Below, piece by piece: positions 5,627 through 28,170 of a DNA stretch of 64,000 bases; position 1 is the stretch's first letter; every line of letters starts with the position of its first letter. Source of the stretch: a virus (lineage: Duplodnaviria > Heunggongvirae > Uroviricota > Caudoviricetes); IMG/VR virus record IMGVR_UViG_2718218131_000011, positions 1 through 64,000 of that record. The stretch is one strand, 5' to 3'. Made by a program: the position numbers and the translations under genes. The notes beneath the pieces are model-generated. The model saw nothing but the letters and a program-made list of their open reading frames with translations. It had not been told where the DNA came from and ran no database searches.

Positions 5627-6187
5627 ATGAAAACAATCGAACAAAAAATTGAACAGCACCGTAAGTGGCAGAAGGCAGCCAGAGAACGAGCGATCGCTCG
5701 GCAACGGGAGAAGTTGGCTGATCCGGCCTGGCGAGAATCTCAATATCAGAAAATGCGGAATACTATCGACCGCCGTATCGCTAAACAGAAAGAGCGCCCA
5801 CCAGCCAGCAAAACGTGGAAAAGCGCGGTAAAAATAAAATCTCGTGGCTTGAAGGGACGAACACCGACGGCGGAGGAGCGGCGCATAGCCAATGCTCTTG
5901 GCGCTCTCCCCTGCATTGCCTGCTATATGCATGGAGTAATATCTGAAGAGGTGTCTCTGCACCATATCTCCGGTCGTACCGCGCCTGGTTGTCACAAAAA
6001 GCAATTGCCACTTTGTAGATGGCACCACCAGCATGCAGCACCGGCTGAAGTAAGAGAAAAATACCCCTGGCTGGTCCCTGTTCATGCCGATGGTGTGGTT
6101 GGAGGCAAGAAAGAATTCACCTTGCTGAACAAGTCAGAGATGGAGTTGCTGGCTGACGCCTATGAGATGGCAAACATAATGCACTAA
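5627..6187 (+). CDS. ref: Recombination enhancement function Ref (HNH endonuclease family)
   Basis: 186 aa starting MKTIEQKIEQHRKWQKAARERA; Cys/His-rich HNH-like core CYMHGV...LHHISGR...CRWHH; recognised as P1 Ref. Confidence 0.85.
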   Translation: MKTIEQKIEQHRKWQKAARERAIARQREKLADPAWRESQYQKMRNTIDRRIAKQKERPPASKTWKSAVKIKSRGLKGRTPTAEERRIANALGALPCIACYMHGVISEEVSLHHISGRTAPGCHKKQLPLCRWHHQHAAPAEVREKYPWLVPVHADGVVGGKKEFTLLNKSEMELLADAYEMANIMH

Positions 6188-19850: not shown

Positions 19851-20019
19851 AAAGACCTCATAAGCGAATTTTTTACGCTCCAGGACAAATACCCATTCAC
19901 AGTCAATACCGACTGACTCGATCCCTTTAGAAGGCACAGGATAATGCAAATCACTTGTTAGCTACGTTTCAAAGATATACATTATTGCTCTAATCATTTT
20001 ATTTTATTAGGTAAGATAA

Positions 20020-20508
20020 GTGGCACAACGCGGTGTAAACAAAGTCATCCTGATTGGTACCCTGGGGCAAGACCCGGAGATCAGGTATATACCAAATGGC
20101 GGCGCTGTCGGAAGACTCAGCATCGCAACGAATGAATCATGGCGCGACAAGCAAACGGGCCAACAGAAAGAGCAGACAGAATGGCATAAAGTCGTTTTGT
20201 TCGGAAAACTTGCTGAAATTGCGAGTGAGTATTTACGAAAAGGTTCTCAGGTCTACATCGAAGGGAAACTTAAAACCCGTAAGTGGACAGATGAGGCCGG
20301 TGTAGAACGCTACACGACGGAAATTATCGTCAGCCAGGGCGGCACCATGCAAATGATCGGCGCTCGCCGTGACGATTCACAGTCCTCAAATGGCTGGGGG
20401 CAATCAAACCAACCTCAAAACCACCAGCAATACAGTGGCGGCGGTAAACCTCAGAGCAACGCCAATAACGAACCTCCAATGGACTTTGAAGACGATATTC
20501 CATTTTGA
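20020..20508 (+). CDS. ssb: Single-stranded DNA-binding protein
   Basis: OB-fold N-terminus [20 protein letters not shown] and acidic C-terminal tail DFEDDIPF. Confidence 0.95.
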
Positions 20509-20741
20509 GAGGGCTGAAAGTTGCTCGATTACTTAAAAATAACTTTACCTAATTGGTGTAAAAAAATGGGCGCAACAAAGCGCCCCAACAATAGAGTTTC
20601 AAATTAATAAAAGGGTAATAAATAACATGAAGTTAAATTGAGAAGAGGCAATTTTATTGCCTCTTCAAAGGTGGCATGAGGGTGCCACCTATATGCGGGC
20701 AGTGACATCACTCCCTTCCCGCATATTCTTACCTACCAAAA

Positions 20742-21854
20742 TTAGAATTGGTAGGTCATACCAACAGCAACGATGTTGTCGGTTGCAACCTCAGATGCTT
20801 TGGTAAATTCACTTTCATCAATCAGGTTGATCTTGTAGTCAACGAAAGCGGACATATTTTTGTTGAAGTAATAAGTCGCGCCTACGTCGATGTATTCAAC
20901 TAGATCCTGGTTACCGAACGCACCAATATTTTCACCGCGAGAGTGCAGGTAAGCGATGGACGGACGCAGGCCGAAATCAAACTGGTATTGAGCAACAGCT
21001 TCAAAGTTTTTCGCTTTGTTTGCGATAAAGTCATCACCGAAGACTGTCATATTCTGAGTTTCAGAATAAGTTGCAGCCAGGTAAATGTTGTTTGCGTCAT
21101 ATTTCAGACCAGTAGCCCATACTTCAGCTGTTTTACCAGAAGCATTCAGAGAGCTTGCATTAGCATAGGATACCTGTCCATCAGTACGGTCAGATTTTGC
21201 ATAAGTTGCGCCAATGCCAAATCCTTCATAATCATAAGTAGCTGACAGACCGAAGCCATCACCATTAGATTCAACTACGTCGCGGCCTTTCCAGTTGTTC
21301 ACTTTTGCAGCACTATCATTTTTACCCTGATACTGCAAAGCAAAGTTCAGACCATCAACCAAGCCGAAGAAATCATTGTTACGATAGGTCGCGACGCCAG
21401 TAGCACGCTGGGTCATAAATACATCAGTCTGAGTCCAGGTATCTCCACCAAACTCCGGCAGCACGTCAGTCCAAGCGCCAACATCATACGCTACACCGTA
21501 GTTGCGACCATAGTCGAGCGAACCATAATCGCCAAAGCGAAGCCCTGCAAACGCAAGACGAGTTTTGTCTTTATCAGAACCTTCAGTTTCAGTACGGTTA
21601 CCTTTAAATTCGTACTCCCACTGACCAAAACCGGTTAACTGGTCATTAATCTGAGTTTCACCTTTGAAACCCATACGAGCATAAGTTTTATCCCCGTCAT
21701 CACTAGCTGAAGAAGAGAAGTAATGCTCTGCATTAACTTTGCCGTACAGATCCAGTTTGTTACCGTCTTTGTTATAGATTTCTGCCGCTTGTGCAGACAT
21801 TGCCATCAGGACTGATGCTGCAACCGCAGAAAGTGCCACTGTGATTTTTTTCAT
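20742..21854 (-). CDS. General bacterial porin, OmpC/NmpC/Lc type
   Basis: 370 aa with signal peptide [40 protein letters not shown] start of mature protein and C-terminal VAVGMTYQF. Confidence 0.9.
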
Positions 21855-22560
21855 TTTTTTGCCCTTTAGATTGAACTTTTCAGTAGAAAAGAGGTCACTG
21901 CGGACAAATGTTTATCTTTTTTGGATTCGTGTTTCAAGTTTTGCAAATAAAAATCAAGGTATTTTTGTGATCAAAATCACAAATAATAACCTTGAAAACC
22001 CAATGGACTATTAGAAAAATCTCAATTCACAGAATAAAAATTGACAAAATAGAACAAAACACAATCAACAATAAGCACAAAAGACAAACAATTAAATTAG
22101 CACAAAAATAATAACTGCAAAAATAGATAGCCTGTTAATTAATAGGGTTTTAATGGATGTGGATTTGAAATCTACTTAAAAAGTAGAGTCAAATTAATTA
22201 CTGTCGATTGGGTATTAAACTGAATCTATATTGTGAGAGTTAAAGACGATGTGTTTTAGTTATACATGTTATTCCCTAAAATGGAGTAGTCTCATCGAAT
22301 TCTGATTAATAACGAGCTAAGCCAATTCATTTTAGTATGTGTATATCTTTACCCTCTGAATATGCAATGACGAAGAGATATTAAACAATATGTAGCTTCA
22401 GGATTGACTCTGGAAGAATTAAAAGATCGGCTAAAGTGTTCAATATGTGGTGAGCGAAACGCAAAAATTAAAATTTTTTGATCTAACATATTAGGCAATA
22501 GCTTGCTTCCATAACCTAAAGCAAGCCACTACGCGTTTACTTTAAGTACACAATTAACAT
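21855..22560 (-). promoter_or_regulatory. AT-rich regulatory region upstream of the porin gene
   Basis: About 700 bp without ORFs, extremely AT-rich, with TTTGAAATCTAC-type elements resembling OmpR boxes of ompC. Confidence 0.35.
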
Positions 22561-22593
22561 ATCAGAACAGATTATTTGTGCACTATCAGGGAG

Positions 22594-22899
22594 TTAATAT
22601 ACGATCTGGTCTACATGATCCCCAAAATCATCGTCGTCCTCATCGCCACCCTCTACTGCTGGCCAATCGACAAACCAGCCAGCGTAAAGATGCAGCGTTC
22701 GGAGAACATCACTTGCGGGAGCATCAAGGGTGTTAACGAATCCCATATAGCTATTGGGATTTGCCCCAGCTATGGCTTCAGCGATCATGTCCTCGGTAAT
22801 GTCACCGGAGATAATGCTTAAACGCCCGGAAACTTCTTCATTATCATCAAATTCGATAATGGCATCTCCGCCTAATGGCGCTGCGATTTTAATCTGCAT
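22594..22899 (-). CDS. Acidic hypothetical protein at the distal end of the darA operon
   Basis: 101-aa ORF co-oriented with the ddrB-like gene; acidic C-terminus. Confidence 0.45.
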   Translation of the reverse strand: MQIKIAAPLGGDAIIEFDDNEEVSGRLSIISGDITEDMIAEAIAGANPNSYMGFVNTLDAPASDVLRTLHLYAGWFVDWPAVEGGDEDDDDFGDHVDQIVY

Positions 22900-25876
22900 T
22901 ATTTAGCTCCTTTGCCACACCTAATAACAGTTCCAGCAATCCGTCACCATTCATCAGTGATGCGGCAGCGGCCTCTTTGTCATGATACAACTGAAGAGCC
23001 ATAGAGAATACTTCCGTTGCTGATGTTTTTGAAATAGTCGGTGCTTTCTGCCGAATTTTCCCGGAGTTACTCACTGAGGCTGGCGGGTATACCTTCGCCA
23101 TATAAATATTACTCAATCGAGATCTGAAGCACCATTCAGGCTTGCCACGCCCACCGATATTAACGAAAGATGGCTTATCCCCTTCAACATTGGCCTTCAG
23201 GAATGACCGGGCTTTCTCTAACAAACCAGGGTTACTGTACTCAAGATGATGACCCAGCTCGTGCCACAGTGCACTTGCATTTTCATCGTTCAAATTGACA
23301 GCAACAACACCATTAAGATTTGCATATGCCCTTCCCTGGTGGTGAACCACCTTTGATAAGGTCGAAATTTTACCGCCGGTCAGGCGATAAATATCAGCAA
23401 GTTCCTTGCGCAGGTCTATCCCACCATTCTGTCCAGCGCGGGCTTCTTCCACTTCTTCCGTGATAAAAGAGTCGGCCCACTCAAGAGCTTTTTCTTCAGA
23501 TACGGATGAGTTTGCGATCGCACTGTTCATGGCAGATAACACTTTCTCGTGGACCGAACCCATACTTCGCTGATTCATTTGCCAGCGTGTCTGCGGGTTA
23601 TATGAGAATCGCTTAAGTAGTTGGTCAAGCTGCTCAAGTTCTTCTTCACTGACATACCTTTTAGCCTCACCAATAATGCCAGGGAGAATATTGCCGTTAG
23701 GATTAAACGCTCGCGAAAGGAAGAGTTTCAGCGCCCCCATGCCCTCCGATGCTTCAATATCACCAATAACCCGGTTAACAATGGCCGCACTCTTCGGATT
23801 AGCATCCGCCAACCCTCTGGCTACAATTTGCAGGGACGATACGACCTCACGCTGCATATCCGTCCTGATCTCATCAATAAACTCTGGCGTTATGCCGTGC
23901 TCTTTAAGGATATCCCTGCCTTCCGCCGTTACCCCATCGATATCACCGACATGTTTATTAACCCGACTTTGCAATGCCTTAAATGCCTTCAGAATTCCAC
24001 GGGCATCATCCGCTTTACTAACGGCCTTCCTGAATGCTGGCAAGAAGTCTGAGTTAACCTCATTTTGTTGATCGGCCCACTGAATGGAGGCTTCTTTCAT
24101 CTCGTCCAGAGTCAGATCACCCAACGCAGTATGGTCTGTGAATATGAGCGACAACCTCTGAACCATTTCTGCCAATGGTGATGCCGAATGCGCCGCGCTA
24201 AGGAATGCTTTCACCCTGGTTGGGCGAATGGAAAACCAGTCAATAGCTGGTGGCATATCTCCGTTTTTTATCGCCTGCGCTATCTCGTCAAAGCCATCGC
24301 GCCCAAGGGAGGATGCGTGATTTAACAAGCCGCGAAGTAACGAATTGCTGATACCGAATAATCGGCACCATTTTTTCACGTCGGCAACAGGCATTCGAAC
24401 AAAATGCGCAAGCACTTGTACAAGCTGTTCATCCTGGGGATCTGTACGGGAAAGCAGCCTGATCAGATGAATAATGTCTTTGATGCCGGATGCCCGATGT
24501 AATAGCAAACTGGTATATGGAGCAACACCGTTGTAACTACCGCCGGAAACGGACTCGAAAAGACCGCCGGATATCCCTTGCATGCCTTCGTTTTCCAGTT
24601 CCTGAGACACCTGGCGAAGGATATCCTGTAACGACACATCACCACCACCAAACATATCCCCCAGCGCCTGGCCCTGGTGCTGTAACTCATCATTGATACG
24701 TTGAGCCATCAATTTAAAAGCGGTGGCCATACGCTTCGCGCTACGGTTATTCGCGACGATGAACAACGCGAGAGCTTTCACTTCCGGGGCTGTTTCGCTG
24801 AACATATCCCCCTGAGCAATAACATCGGTAATATGTTGGCCTGACTCCTTCGATTGCCTTACCAGGTCTACCGCATCTTTCAATGCCGCCAGCGCCTTTT
24901 TATCGAGGCTATCCGCTGTCTCAATGCCATCAACAATAGTTGTCACAGCCTGCTTGTGCGCTTCTCCTGATAAAGCCTGCATCTGGACAAAATCATTGGC
25001 TGCCGCATTAAGCGCCGTCAGAACATTACGCATATCCGGATCAGCTTCTTCTGCAACCATCCTTACCAGGCGCGCATCCTTATATGCCTTGGCAAAGATC
25101 GCGTTTTGTATACGGTCTACAAGTTGCCGTGTTGGTCGCCCATCTTCCGTTACAAGGCCAGCAGCCTGTGTGGCACCAACTTGCGTCATGAATCCGCGAA
25201 TAAACGCGTCATTACTGCGGCTAAGCAGATCTCCGCTTTCTGATGGGTTAAACAGCGCCATCATCGCCGGAGTTATGCTGTCAGCATCAACAAAAGCCTT
25301 TTCACTGGCTGCCATTTCCTGAAGATCAGAAATATTTGAGTCCTTGGCAAACTGAACGCGGTCAACCTTAGTTAACCGGCGGCGCACCAGTACCGGAGCC
25401 GCCATTGATTCAACCTTTTCAGGTCGTATGCCGAATTCGGTCGCATGATCAATCAGGTACTCACGATACCGATCCGCATTGCCGTCCTGATAGGCTTTGA
25501 TGATCCCCATGGTCCGTCCATTACCTGACTCAACGGCATTGTCCTCACCAATTATCGGCGCGCCATGGCTGGATAAACCGGAATCGGTAAGCTGGGCAGG
25601 ACGCAAATCCTTGGATATCTGGTTGACCTGAAGAAGACTGGATGCGCGGGTCCGGTCGCGCGGCTGAAGTTCCTGGGGATAGTCAGGGTTAATTTTCCCG
25701 TCCAGAGTATTGGATACCAAAAGAGCTGAGGCATCGACGATATCAAACGCTGTTTTTACCTCGTCTCCCTTCGCTGTCACCACATACGAAACCCGCCCGT
25801 AATTGGGCAGGTTTTTTAGCAGCTCGATCAGCGTTTCTATGCTGGTGGCCATTACCACCTGATCGCTTAAGCTCAT
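22889..25876 (-). CDS. ddrB: DdrB-like antirestriction-associated protein
   Basis: 995-aa ORF in the darA operon; name by size and synteny. Confidence 0.6.
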   Translation of the reverse strand: MSLSDQVVMATSIETLIELLKNLPNYGRVSYVVTAKGDEVKTAFDIVDASALLVSNTLDGKINPDYPQELQPRDRTRASSLLQVNQISKDLRPAQLTDSGLSSHGAPIIGEDNAVESGNGRTMGIIKAYQDGNADRYREYLIDHATEFGIRPEKVESMAAPVLVRRRLTKVDRVQFAKDSNISDLQEMAASEKAFVDADSITPAMMALFNPSESGDLLSRSNDAFIRGFMTQVGATQAAGLVTEDGRPTRQLVDRIQNAIFAKAYKDARLVRMVAEEADPDMRNVLTALNAAANDFVQMQALSGEAHKQAVTTIVDGIETADSLDKKALAALKDAVDLVRQSKESGQHITDVIAQGDMFSETAPEVKALALFIVANNRSAKRMATAFKLMAQRINDELQHQGQALGDMFGGGDVSLQDILRQVSQELENEGMQGISGGLFESVSGGSYNGVAPYTSLLLHRASGIKDIIHLIRLLSRTDPQDEQLVQVLAHFVRMPVADVKKWCRLFGISNSLLRGLLNHASSLGRDGFDEIAQAIKNGDMPPAIDWFSIRPTRVKAFLSAAHSASPLAEMVQRLSLIFTDHTALGDLTLDEMKEASIQWADQQNEVNSDFLPAFRKAVSKADDARGILKAFKALQSRVNKHVGDIDGVTAEGRDILKEHGITPEFIDEIRTDMQREVVSSLQIVARGLADANPKSAAIVNRVIGDIEASEGMGALKLFLSRAFNPNGNILPGIIGEAKRYVSEEELEQLDQLLKRFSYNPQTRWQMNQRSMGSVHEKVLSAMNSAIANSSVSEEKALEWADSFITEEVEEARAGQNGGIDLRKELADIYRLTGGKISTLSKVVHHQGRAYANLNGVVAVNLNDENASALWHELGHHLEYSNPGLLEKARSFLKANVEGDKPSFVNIGGRGKPEWCFRSRLSNIYMAKVYPPASVSNSGKIRQKAPTISKTSATEVFSMALQLYHDKEAAAASLMNGDGLLELLLGVAKELNNAD

Positions 25877-25888
25877 CCCTGTTACGCC

Positions 25889-26254
25889 TTATTCTGCCTC
25901 TTTAATGTTGGCGGCTATCCATGCCGCCGTGTGCTGTTTAACCTGGTCCAGGTCGATGTATGTGCCAACATATTGACTCAAGTCCTGTAACGTACCGATA
26001 AATGCATCAGTGCTCTGATCGACGAATTTATCAGCCAGGAAATCAGCAACCAGTTTTGGCACACCATCATGTACCGAAGGTTGTTTTTCCTCGCCACTAC
26101 CGCTGCCGGACGCGCCGTACCCCATCTGTTGCATGATCTGGTCAATTTCATCGCTGATATCCAGCAACTCCATGCCACTCGCGGTCGCCGCTTTGGACAT
26201 TAGAGCATCCAACTTATCGCTGAGATCCATTAACTCAATAGCTGATAGTGTCAT
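25889..26254 (-). CDS. DdrA-like small acidic protein
   Basis: 121-aa ORF between the darA-like and ddrB-like genes. Confidence 0.5.
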   Translation of the reverse strand: MTLSAIELMDLSDKLDALMSKAATASGMELLDISDEIDQIMQQMGYGASGSGSGEEKQPSVHDGVPKLVADFLADKFVDQSTDAFIGTLQDLSQYVGTYIDLDQVKQHTAAWIAANIKEAE

Positions 26255-28170
26255 GCCGCTACCCCCGCTTTCTGGATTGCTACCAACAGATCAGCCAGGT
26301 GGCGAGCTGCGCCGTTAACCAGCTCTTCGTTTTCCTCAAAACGTTCGGCAGCCTGAAGGGATGCAATCGCTTCCCGGACATTGCCCCGGGCGTTACGGAT
26401 CTCCGCCATGTCAGTGCTTTGCATATCCATCACGTTATTGAGATATTCAATGGCTTTATTAGCCTCTGCATCTGCTTCGCTAACCGTTTCATCAGGCTGT
26501 GCCGGGGCCGGTTCTGGCTGAGTAATCTCACCGACTTCGGCCTGCAATGCATTGATCATGCTCTGCAACATTTTCTCGGTGCCAGCGCCACCCGGAAACG
26601 CAATATTGGGGAAAGTTTTTTGAAACTGAGTTTTCAGCATTACGCGGAACTCGTCTGGTGAGCTGGTGGCCAGCTCCAGAGCTTTTTGTGCATATTTGCC
26701 AAACGGACCATTAGTAAGTGTCTTCGCCAGGAAGTCGAAAGAATCCTCGCGAGGCAATAACTTCAGGTCGTACTCACTCATTTGCTGATCAGAAAGCGGG
26801 GTATCATAAGTAGCAATGCCGTAGCGTGCATATTCATAATACGGATCACCTTCATCAGGGCGCGGCAGAATTGCTTTGTTACCTTCAGGTATTGCGCCAG
26901 GGGCCGCCGGACGCATTTGCAGAGCATATCGATATGCACCTACAGAGACTTCTGGTTCAGGCGAAGAGCTACCGGTATCCTCCGCTGGTTCAGGTTCGAC
27001 GTTTTCCGGTTTATGTTCTTCTGGTTGGACCAGATATTCCGATACATTACCCGCTTTATAGGCTTTAAACAGCTTGCCGATTGCATCTGCCATGTCCACA
27101 CCCTGTATGGATTTAGCCTTGATCATATATACGCTGCCATCCGGATCGGTTAACTGGATATACCCTTCGCCATCCCCAATGAATTGCTTCATTGATGCAC
27201 CATTACTGAGCGTCGCTTCACCGTCCATATGCATGCGATTTTTGATACTGGCAAGGCGATCCGTCAACGCGCGTGAGTGCCCACCAGTTATTGTCACTGG
27301 AGCAATGGTATCGCGCCCACCTGTTCGATTGAGCTGATCAATCTCCGTCTGCAAACGCTCATTCTCTTCATAAAGAGAATCCGCTTCCGATGCAACAGCG
27401 TTAATTTTCTGCTCCAGATCTGCCTTCTGCCCTTCTACCGCTGCCACCTGATCCGCGAGGTCGCTCATGGCATCCTCTTTCTGGTCACTGTCAGCCTGTA
27501 GTTGGGTTATTTCATCAACAAGGGCTTTTTTCTTCTTCTGCGCACGCTGGAATTTTGCCGAGTTTTTCTCTGCAAGGTTGGCAAGTTTCATGGTGACCTG
27601 CGCCAGCGTCATATCACGTCCACTCATCGGAGCAACGGTGTGAGTAACGTCTTTTTTATTCAGTAAGAACTGGAAAGCAACCAGCGTATCGCTATTGGTG
27701 ATCCGGTTTTCCGCTGTCGGGCTATGAAACAGAATGCTGATAGTCTGACCATCACTGAGCGGAATAATGGCTGGCAGGACTGGCAGCCCGTTAACGTTAC
27801 GTGCCCGGCCAATTTCAGCGCCGCCGATCGCGCGCGCGCCGCTCTGGGCCACATCCCCCGTTTTATCACTCCCCGCAGAGATTCCAGTACCATTCAGCTT
27901 CTGGTTCAATGCCCGGACAAATGCCTGCATGGTCCGGTGTAACTGCAAACGAGTAGAACTAATCGCCTCCAGTAAATCCGTAGCACACCAGTGGATCGGC
28001 GTGTCATAGAAGAACGTAGCCTCGATTTCCTCCAGGGTGTTGGATTCCGTCATCAGATAGCGGTCCTCACCGGCCATTAATGCGCGATATTCATCATCAG
28101 TCACTGGCGGGGGAAGCACGTCAAGCCCAGGTTTGATCGTCACCCCTTTATTGATATTGAACTGTTCCAT
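26251..28170 (-). CDS. darA: DarA-like antirestriction protein
   Basis: 639-aa ORF in an operon headed by holin/antiholin-like genes, as in the P1 darA operon. Confidence 0.65.
   Translation of the reverse strand: MEQFNINKGVTIKPGLDVLPPPVTDDEYRALMAGEDRYLMTESNTLEEIEATFFYDTPIHWCATDLLEAISSTRLQLHRTMQAFVRALNQKLNGTGISAGSDKTGDVAQSGARAIGGAEIGRARNVNGLPVLPAIIPLSDGQTISILFHSPTAENRITNSDTLVAFQFLLNKKDVTHTVAPMSGRDMTLAQVTMKLANLAEKNSAKFQRAQKKKKALVDEITQLQADSDQKEDAMSDLADQVAAVEGQKADLEQKINAVASEADSLYEENERLQTEIDQLNRTGGRDTIAPVTITGGHSRALTDRLASIKNRMHMDGEATLSNGASMKQFIGDGEGYIQLTDPDGSVYMIKAKSIQGVDMADAIGKLFKAYKAGNVSEYLVQPEEHKPENVEPEPAEDTGSSSPEPEVSVGAYRYALQMRPAAPGAIPEGNKAILPRPDEGDPYYEYARYGIATYDTPLSDQQMSEYDLKLLPREDSFDFLAKTLTNGPFGKYAQKALELATSSPDEFRVMLKTQFQKTFPNIAFPGGAGTEKMLQSMINALQAEVGEITQPEPAPAQPDETVSEADAEANKAIEYLNNVMDMQSTDMAEIRNARGNVREAIASLQAAERFEENEELVNGAARHLADLLVAIQKAGVAA

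Follow-up and report, generated by a model that had tools for sequence, protein, structure and literature searches.

The window analysed here, a 64,000-nucleotide stretch of a Caudoviricetes genome (IMG/VR record IMGVR_UViG_2718218131_000011, positions 1 to 64,000), carries an intact, uninterrupted open reading frame (ORF) for a 370-residue general porin. The carrier is a P7-like phage-plasmid of the P1 family, and the porin is found between ssb and the hxr/ddrB/ddrA/darA operon (Table 1). The locus is likely to be a self-contained cargo module of ~1.5 kb (roughly positions 20518/20560–22041), for which a function in porin replacement is predicted. Three parts make up this module: a putative CRP-dependent promoter, a porin of the NmpC/Lc/OmpD clade, and a 3′ RNA element of the IpeX family. 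The porin gene itself is not new: the GenBank record of P7 has listed it as nmpC for two decades. The putative CRP-dependent promoter and the 3′ IpeX-type element were previously unannotated; deposited annotations of the P7/JL22/phi456 type name the coding sequence and signal peptide and leave the 5′ and 3′ flanks bare. What is added here is the three-part anatomy of the cargo and a testable prediction that host OmpF and OmpC are silenced.

The 3′ RNA Element

The 185-nt stretch that runs from the porin stop codon to the U-run of a terminator folds at −66.1 kcal/mol (z = −5.6 relative to shuffles). An earlier note on this DNA, made from the sequence alone, had pointed to hairpins downstream of the porin, and the fold bears this out; the note under-rated them, as they are the most informative part of the locus, a homologue of the small RNA (sRNA) IpeX of DLP12. 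The element can be aligned to the DNA that follows PA-2 lc and DLP12 nmpC on the 3′ side, and its blastn identity to the DLP12 IpeX locus is ~70%. Two published accounts (PMC12197685, PMC5069750), which summarise Castillo-Keller, Vuong and Misra 2006, describe IpeX as a 167-nt RNA that belongs to the porin transcript, is driven by the phage porin promoter, and acts as a repressor of OmpC and OmpF; its release by processing of that transcript is stated in PMC12197685. Lambdoid copies measure 164–166 nt from stop codon to U-run, with the value of 164–165 nt in line with the published size of IpeX.

All of the distinct variants (19/19) independently fold into the same four-hairpin shape, composed of stem-loops SL1, SL2, and SL3, a single-stranded AU-rich linker, and the terminator. 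A covariance model, R1, was built from the P7/island lineage alone, without lambdoid sequence. This model scores 238 bits on the window element and recovers both the K-12 DLP12 element (574366–574531, 81.8 bits, E = 8.5e-17) and the PA-2 element (E ~1e-16) at full length. R1 has no match next to any of 79 chromosomal porin loci from other genera, whose ompD orthologues have a 3′ untranslated region (UTR) of only ~45 nt with a single terminator. In the realigned set (alignment A5), 95.6% of cells are paired and compensatory double changes are found in 16 of 38 pairs, compared with 35–50% of cells and 0–2 pairs in a control in which the 3′ partner was slid. The four predicted helices are supported by this covariation. 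Two divergent copies described below show independent compensations within lineages: L005 in SL2, and L168 in both SL2 and the terminator. The use of MAFFT/RNAalifold on the mixed alignment missed SL3 through a register shift of one column, and realignment to the covariance model recovered it.

The 3′ RNA is 65% identical to that of PA-2 overall and 74% identical in the linker, whereas identity at four-fold synonymous sites of the adjacent coding sequence is 46–51%. The RNA is more conserved than the synonymous sites, which argues for constraint on the RNA itself. The P7-type element is a homologue of the DLP12/PA-2 IpeX sRNA and itself a predicted sRNA. Rfam contains no IpeX model, and the element is for this reason a concrete unannotated RNA for annotation pipelines.

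GcvB was considered as an identity for this element and rejected. Rfam returns a full-length GcvB match at 20560–20746 (− strand), including an R2-like ACUUC.UGU, at 30.4 bits against a gathering threshold of 42 (E = 4.9e-5 in a 401-nt search). The PA-2 IpeX region has no such match, and the window element is accounted for by its homology to the nmpC/lc 3′ flank; the match is taken as an incidental resemblance of the longer P7-type variant.

Predicted Targets of the RNA

In an exploratory target prediction, the 3′ RNA would shut off host OmpF and OmpC. In the P7 type, the linker segment UGUUAUUUAUUACCCUU (20611–20627) is complementary to positions −14 to +2 of the ompF mRNA (GAGGGUAAUAAAUAAUG, Shine-Dalgarno sequence through AUG) over 17 contiguous base pairs, three of which are G-U, and the segment UUCAUGUUAUU (20621–20631) is complementary to positions −6 to +4 of the ompC mRNA over 11 Watson-Crick base pairs. 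The duplex of the whole P7-type linker with ompF is predicted at −33.7 kcal/mol, which none of 300 shuffles equals, and that with ompC at −27.0 kcal/mol, which 1% of shuffles equal. Against the start region of the module's own porin, the linker shows no pairing above that of shuffles.

Lambdoid IpeX is predicted to contact the same two mRNAs, with AACCUUCUGUUAUAU complementary to ompC −21 to −7 (15 bp) and UAUUACCCUU complementary to ompF −14 to −5 (10 bp). The divergent L168 variant lacks UUAUUACCC but has a different 11-bp complement, of ompC −17 to −7. The P7 type, the lambdoid type, and L168 keep anti-porin complementarity through different nucleotides, which would imply ongoing selection on targeting.

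The Porin

The predicted protein matches Pfam Porin_1 (PF00267) over positions 1–337 of 337 (E = 2e-148), and its residues 24–370 align to the entire solved chains of OmpC/OmpK36 (E ~1e-135). The signal peptide comprises 23 residues, as does the sig_peptide of the P7 annotation, with cleavage between SAQA and AEIYNK. The Sec signal peptide with its AXA site, the PEFGGD constriction motif of L3, and the C-terminal YQF all fall in invariant alignment columns. The description of the gene as that of a full-length general porin with a signal peptide is therefore upheld. By these family matches, the protein is a general bacterial porin of the Porin_1 OmpC/OmpF/PhoE type, predicted to form a trimeric outer-membrane channel.

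Protein identity is 98.1% to P7 NmpC, with lower values for NmpC of phage 434, a DLP12-type allele (81%), "OmpD" of many lambdoid phages (80–82%), PA-2 Lc (79%), the chromosomal OmpD orthologues of Salmonella, Citrobacter, and Enterobacter (69–74%), K-12 OmpC (64%), and K-12 OmpF (60%). By identity, the porin is thus placed in the NmpC/Lc/OmpD clade, although the broad NCBIfam subfamily to which it belongs is "porin OmpC" (531.7 bits; cut-off, 484). The resemblance to PA-2 Lc that had been proposed extends beyond the protein to homologous 5′ and 3′ flanks. Differences between the porin and Lc are concentrated in a few segments. In one variable segment, which is probably a surface loop, a P7-type-specific insertion at ~21258–21299 (codons ~186–199) resembles NNGRDALRQ of K-12 OmpC and hints at a mosaic loop.

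The ratio of nonsynonymous to synonymous substitution rates (dN/dS) is 0.10 among P7-type alleles and 0.07 in comparison with lambdoid alleles, and every full-length copy recovered is intact (87/87); these values indicate that the porin gene is under purifying selection. Synonymous divergence from the lambdoid alleles is saturated (dS 1.3–1.7), and the P7 type is therefore an old branch rather than a recent transfer from a lambdoid phage. A functional study of the P7 porin was not found in the literature searched.

Within the coding sequence, CAGUGGC at 21836–21842 (+13 to +19) is a perfect complement of the 5′ seed of RybB, GCCACUG; PA-2 lc has kept the same heptamer. A match of only 7 nt is not significant alone and is consistent with clade-wide control by sRNAs; nmpC mRNA is named as a RybB target in the literature. 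MicC has no significant pairing with the porin mRNA.

The Promoter and Upstream Region

Upstream of the porin, a CRP core, TGTGA-N6-TCACA, is centred 119.5 bp before the ATG. This core is the sole perfect match in the 64-kb window, in which 0.06 are expected. In the PA-2 lc record (J02580), an annotated CRP site is centred 119 bp before the ATG of lc, and the site is found at 117–120 bp in every mobile lineage. The core is matched at 10/10 positions in the P7 type, the E47 island, and the conjugative-plasmid variant, and at 8/10 in lambdoid phages. A related site, GATC…GATCACA, lies 150–161 bp upstream of chromosomal ompD orthologues. The putative sigma-70 promoter next to the CRP site has a −35 element, TTGAAA, that is conserved in all lineages, and a weak −10 element; for a start at ~21902, placed from that weak −10, the CRP site is centred at about −71.5. 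The 5′ UTR of ~48 nt would contain the Shine-Dalgarno sequence AAGGG and an invariant CGCAGTGAC block. In one common lambdoid allele group (L116 and 17 identical loci), a 14–15-bp tandem duplication (GCAGTGACATCATTT twice) is present in the 5′ UTR, and the CRP site has moved to 133 bp from the ATG.

The earlier note had instead assigned to the porin its own AT-rich upstream region of 700 bp with OmpR-box-like elements. The AT-richness is confirmed: the tract at 21855–22590 (736 bp) has a G+C content of 30% (28–33% in sliding windows), compared with roughly 42–55% in the flanking genes, and contains no supported ORF. The region is not the porin's own, as only ~190 bp of it (21855 to ~22041) are common to other porin copies. 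This part is 78–84% identical to that of the chromosomal island copies, and its promoter-proximal ~130 bp can be aligned also to PA-2 lc and DLP12 nmpC.

An osmoporin under OmpR/EnvZ control, with ompC-like behaviour directed by OmpR boxes in this tract, would agree with the AT-richness, which is shared by OmpR sites, and with the name "porin OmpC" that both NCBIfam and PGAP give to the protein. The sites themselves are not borne out. A position weight matrix (PWM) was derived from six K-12 ompC/ompF boxes, all of which were confirmed verbatim upstream of K-12 ompC and ompF. The best PWM score in 21855–22590 is reached by 59–86% of dinucleotide shuffles; the best tandem triple in the same tract scores below the shuffle mean, whereas the true ompC/ompF promoters score 30–57 bits; and nothing in the upstream tract lies within three mismatches of the OmpR C1 box. 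In addition, the DNA beyond ~190 bp is not shared among porin copies, and the protein is NmpC/Lc-like rather than OmpC-like by identity. OmpR/EnvZ control is thus very improbable. Control of the porin by CRP is supported by the site and its conserved placement, and control by OmpR is unsupported.

No operator for the P1 repressor C1 is found in 20500–22600, the nearest being Op(ssb) at 19984–20000. In the window, the C1-operator consensus (≤3 mismatches) has six matches, at 6178, 16133, 19984, 46179, 47838, and 62040, compared with 0.29 expected, consistent with the P1/P7 immunity network.

Distribution and Mobility of the Module

The nearest non-plasmid copies of the porin (98% and 81% protein identity) are located in chromosomal islands bounded by insertion sequences (IS). 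On the 3′ side of these islands, an IS3 end is found a few bases from the position of the P7 junction, and TnpB, IS5, or IS1 is found on the 5′ side. The island loci include L004 (9225–10337), L005 (9183–10280), and L169 (4211–5307). One island copy, in which the porin is frameshifted, occupies an integrase island at tRNA-Phe. A lambdoid origin of the island copies was considered and rejected, as the relatives are in IS-bounded islands and none is in a lambdoid prophage.

Two copies differ from the P7 type in composition. L005 (NZ_CP121151.1, 9001–10520) joins an Lc-like coding sequence (dS of 0.16 to PA-2 lc) to a 3′ RNA (93%) and promoter region of the P7 type, and from this mosaic it follows that lineages recombine inside the module. 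L168 (NZ_CP055049.1, 3356–5267) is on a plasmid with conjugative-transfer genes (TrbC) and has a 78%-identical porin, a perfect CRP core, and a divergent IpeX-like 3′ RNA. The L168 porin directly adjoins its own ssb, so that a porin is found beside ssb on two unrelated backbones; this adjacency could be due to coincidence or to recombination through ssb. The promoter, CRP site, porin, and IpeX-type RNA recur together in lambdoid phages, P1-family plasmids, IS-bounded islands, and a conjugative plasmid, and by this distribution the four constitute the mobile unit.

In PLSDB, the module is present on 113 plasmids (108 from Escherichia, 3 from Klebsiella, and 2 from Salmonella). The neighbouring ddrB (P1) backbone is carried by ~484 PLSDB plasmids, ~23% of which have the module. 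The module or a close relative is found in 151 of 5426 complete E. coli genomes, with ~100 of these copies on plasmids. On the plasmids NZ_MN510446.1 and NZ_CP043218.1 (H123 and H125), module copies that are otherwise 100% identical are interrupted by ISVsa5 or an IS3-family element. The interval is, on the evidence of these split copies, still an active insertion hotspot.

Genomic Context

The region 20400–22700 is 98.6% identical in nucleotide sequence to Enterobacteria phage P7 (AF503408 / NC_050152). In the P7 record, the same ORF is named "nmpC, NmpC precursor", with a signal peptide, and is located between ssb and odaA(hxr)/prt(ddrB)/darA. In phages JL22 and phi456 (95%), the same porin is named "ompD", and in a published P7-like mcr-1 plasmid from Klebsiella, ompD is listed between hxr and ssb. 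The P1 counterpart of this interval is isaA-IS1-isaB. Both the placement of the porin as cargo between ssb and the darA operon and the content of the P1 interval had been described correctly in the earlier note.

Homology to P1 ends at ~20508–20511, the ssb stop codon, and resumes at 22373. The DNA from 22373 to 22593 is P1 backbone, comprising a 3′ remnant of isaB and the isaB/hxr hairpin; the truncated isaB 3′ end and the shared hairpin represent a fossil of the replacement event. The porin region has replaced P1 DNA at a spot known to vary and is no misassembly, because the same junctions are present in P7, JL22, and phi456 and in >100 complete plasmids. Chromosomal porin DNA misjoined to phage DNA, which the earlier note had named as an outcome that would overturn its reading, is refuted by these junctions, identical in three independently sequenced phage genomes and the complete plasmids, and by the isaB remnant on the right; the probability left to it is negligible.

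The orientation of the genes suggests a further explanation. Because the porin directly follows hxr-ddrB-ddrA-darA on one strand, its transcription could stem mainly from the darA late operon, by read-through in lytic growth. A conserved hairpin and ~700 bp of spacer intervene, however, and the CRP-promoter block is kept in lambdoid phages, chromosomal islands, and the conjugative plasmid, where there is no darA operon. Read-through as the main source of porin transcripts is accordingly hard to credit.

Table 1. Features of the porin locus and its flanks, in window positions
Feature	Positions	Strand	Remarks
ssb	20020–20508	+	flanking gene
Left junction spacer	20509–20559		ssb stop codon to module terminator; chromosomal island copy matches down to ~20518, where an IS3 end abuts
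IpeX-type 3′ RNA element, 185 nt	20560–20744	−	porin stop codon to terminator U-run; homology to PA-2/DLP12 nmpC 3′ flank
U-run	20560–20566	−	part of 3′ RNA element
Terminator stem	20568–20585	−	part of 3′ RNA element
Single-stranded linker	20586–20641	−	part of 3′ RNA element
Predicted seed	20611–20631	−	inside linker; prediction only
SL3	20642–20666	−	part of 3′ RNA element
SL2	20669–20690	−	part of 3′ RNA element
SL1	20691–20726	−	part of 3′ RNA element
Porin coding sequence, 370 residues	20742–21854	−	NmpC/Lc/OmpD clade
Mature porin	20745–21785	−	
Signal peptide codons	21786–21854	−	
Putative 5′ UTR	21855–21903	−	lineage alignment and putative transcription start; Shine-Dalgarno at 21862–21866
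Putative sigma-70 promoter	21908–21937	−	lineage alignment; −35 TTGAAA at 21932–21937, 17–18-nt spacer, weak −10 TAAACA/AAACAT at 21908–21914
CRP core	21966–21981		perfect TGTGA-N6-TCACA
Distal upstream DNA	21982–22041	−	still travels with the porin; 78–84%, common to chromosomal island copies
AT-rich segment	22042–22372		~28–31% G+C; confined to P7-type plasmids; candidate H-NS-bound silencer or spacer
P1 isaB remnant	22373–22481	+	last ~36 codons, TGA at 22479–22481; right-hand replacement junction
isaB/hxr hairpin	22501–22527		common to P1; called "terminator" in a P1 record; separates darA-operon genes from same-strand porin
hxr/odaA, ddrB/prt, ddrA, darA	22594–28170	−	flanking operon

Proposed Mechanism

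In the proposed scheme, the module and ~330 bp of extra AT-rich DNA would have been inserted in place of isaA, IS1, and the 5′ part of isaB. In the lysogen, cyclic AMP-bound CRP would activate the weak sigma-70 promoter, for which the CRP site would be in a class I geometry. The mRNA would be translated into a Sec-exported, trimeric general porin, and processing of its 3′ end would release a stable IpeX-like RNA of ~185 nt, in the manner reported for IpeX. Through its single-stranded anti-Shine-Dalgarno stretch, this RNA would pair with the initiation regions of host ompF and ompC and not with that of the phage porin, such that the host major porins would be replaced by the phage-borne porin. 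The outer membrane would be expected to change in permeability and to offer other phages and colicins fewer OmpC/OmpF receptors. P1 and P7 adsorb to lipopolysaccharide, and any benefit would therefore be to the host-plasmid pair rather than through self-exclusion.

In its full form, this scheme describes a "porin swap" cassette: a single CRP-driven transcript would provide both a new porin and a diverged IpeX-family sRNA that silences ompF (17 bp) and ompC (11 bp) while its own mRNA is spared, and about a quarter of P1-family plasmids would thereby remodel permeability and phage/colicin receptor display according to carbon source. The full form is put forward tentatively, as a serious possibility.

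Several points weigh against the proposed scheme. The −10 element is poor, the transcription start is placed only by way of that element, and a consensus promoter scan did not have the putative porin promoter among its picks. The literature searched contains no expression data for P7 lysogens. Most of the compensatory changes in the 3′ RNA separate just two lineages and thus stand for a small number of independent events, and A5 is an alignment fitted to the structure model. The duplex predictions ignore target accessibility and Hfq, and, according to a review, the effect of IpeX on ompC is not accounted for by complementarity alone (PMC12197685). The upstream DNA, with 28–33% G+C, is a type of tract that H-NS silences, and it has been stated, with citation of Prilipov 1998 and Highton 1985, that relatives of nmpC in E. 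coli B and K-12 are quiescent or disrupted.

The main rival to expression in lysogens is a quiescent, H-NS-silenced state, in which the module would be an intact hitch-hiker on H-NS-coated AT-rich DNA with a weak promoter and would persist because of its location in a recombination and IS hotspot rather than through any benefit to the phage-plasmid. Such a state fits the composition of the tract, the poor −10 hexamer, and the silence of the promoter scan. The presence of the module on only ~23% of P1-backbone plasmids, the IS-split or frameshifted state of some copies, and the description, in parts of the literature, of nmpC as unexpressed in many E. coli strains agree with it as well. A silent passenger is less readily reconciled with a dN/dS of ~0.1 even among close P7-type alleles and the absence of damage in all 87 full-length copies, with a CRP core that is perfect in three separate lineages, or with a 3′ RNA whose structure is kept by compensatory changes and whose linker is conserved beyond synonymous sites. 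Purifying selection together with conservation of the CRP site and the RNA argues for selection on expression somewhere in the recent history of the module, and quiescence is judged unlikely relative to an expressed porin-replacement module.

Should the RNA function in the predicted way, the levels of OmpF and OmpC would be changed by a common class of E. coli phage-plasmids, members of which often carry mcr-1 or extended-spectrum β-lactamase genes. Such a change would bear on antibiotic permeability and on susceptibility to colicins and therapeutic phages that depend on OmpC or OmpF. It would also bear on the co-transfer of 3′ UTR-derived sRNAs with a gene whose product replaces their targets.

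Comparison with Known Systems

The porin genes of P7 (nmpC) and of JL22, phi456, and P7-like plasmids ("ompD") are the same gene in the same locus with the same neighbours, a few substitutions apart from the gene described here. The chromosomal OmpD proteins of Salmonella, Citrobacter, and Enterobacter belong to the same clade and, similar to the module, have a CRP-like site upstream; unlike the module, their genes have a longer 5′ UTR and no IpeX-like element. A related concept is represented by svsR, an sRNA of the lambdoid prophage NC-SV that reduces a phage receptor of the outer membrane, with protection of the lysogen (bioRxiv 10.1101/2025.05.06.652453). The RNA is unrelated, its targets are lamB and mal genes, and no replacement porin is linked to it.

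The closest parallels are PA-2 lc and DLP12/qsr′ nmpC. Similar to the P7-type porin, these genes are lysogenic-conversion cargo rather than phage structural genes; they share 79–81% protein identity with it, a homologous promoter block and 3′ IpeX region, and the spacing between CRP site and ATG. The main differences are the carrier, the CRP core, one variable segment of the porin, and the 3′ RNA. The P7-type porin occupies the interval between ssb and the darA operon in a P1-family plasmid prophage, whereas lc and nmpC lie between Q and the lysis genes of lambdoid phages. The CRP core is perfect here and 8/10 in PA-2, and the OmpC-like insertion in one variable segment of the porin is not seen in Lc/NmpC. 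IpeX of DLP12 and the P7-type RNA both follow directly after the porin stop codon, form four hairpins, and end in an intrinsic terminator, and both contain the conserved single-stranded stretch UGUUAU(A/U)UAUUACCCUU. Overall identity between the two is ~65–70%; the P7-type RNA is 185 nt long, compared with 164–165 nt in PA-2/DLP12, with a linker longer by 21 nt and different stem sequences. The predicted register on ompC is the AUG region for the P7 type and the Shine-Dalgarno region (−21 to −7) for lambdoid IpeX, and the predicted match to ompF is 17 bp for the P7 type, compared with 10 bp for lambdoid IpeX.

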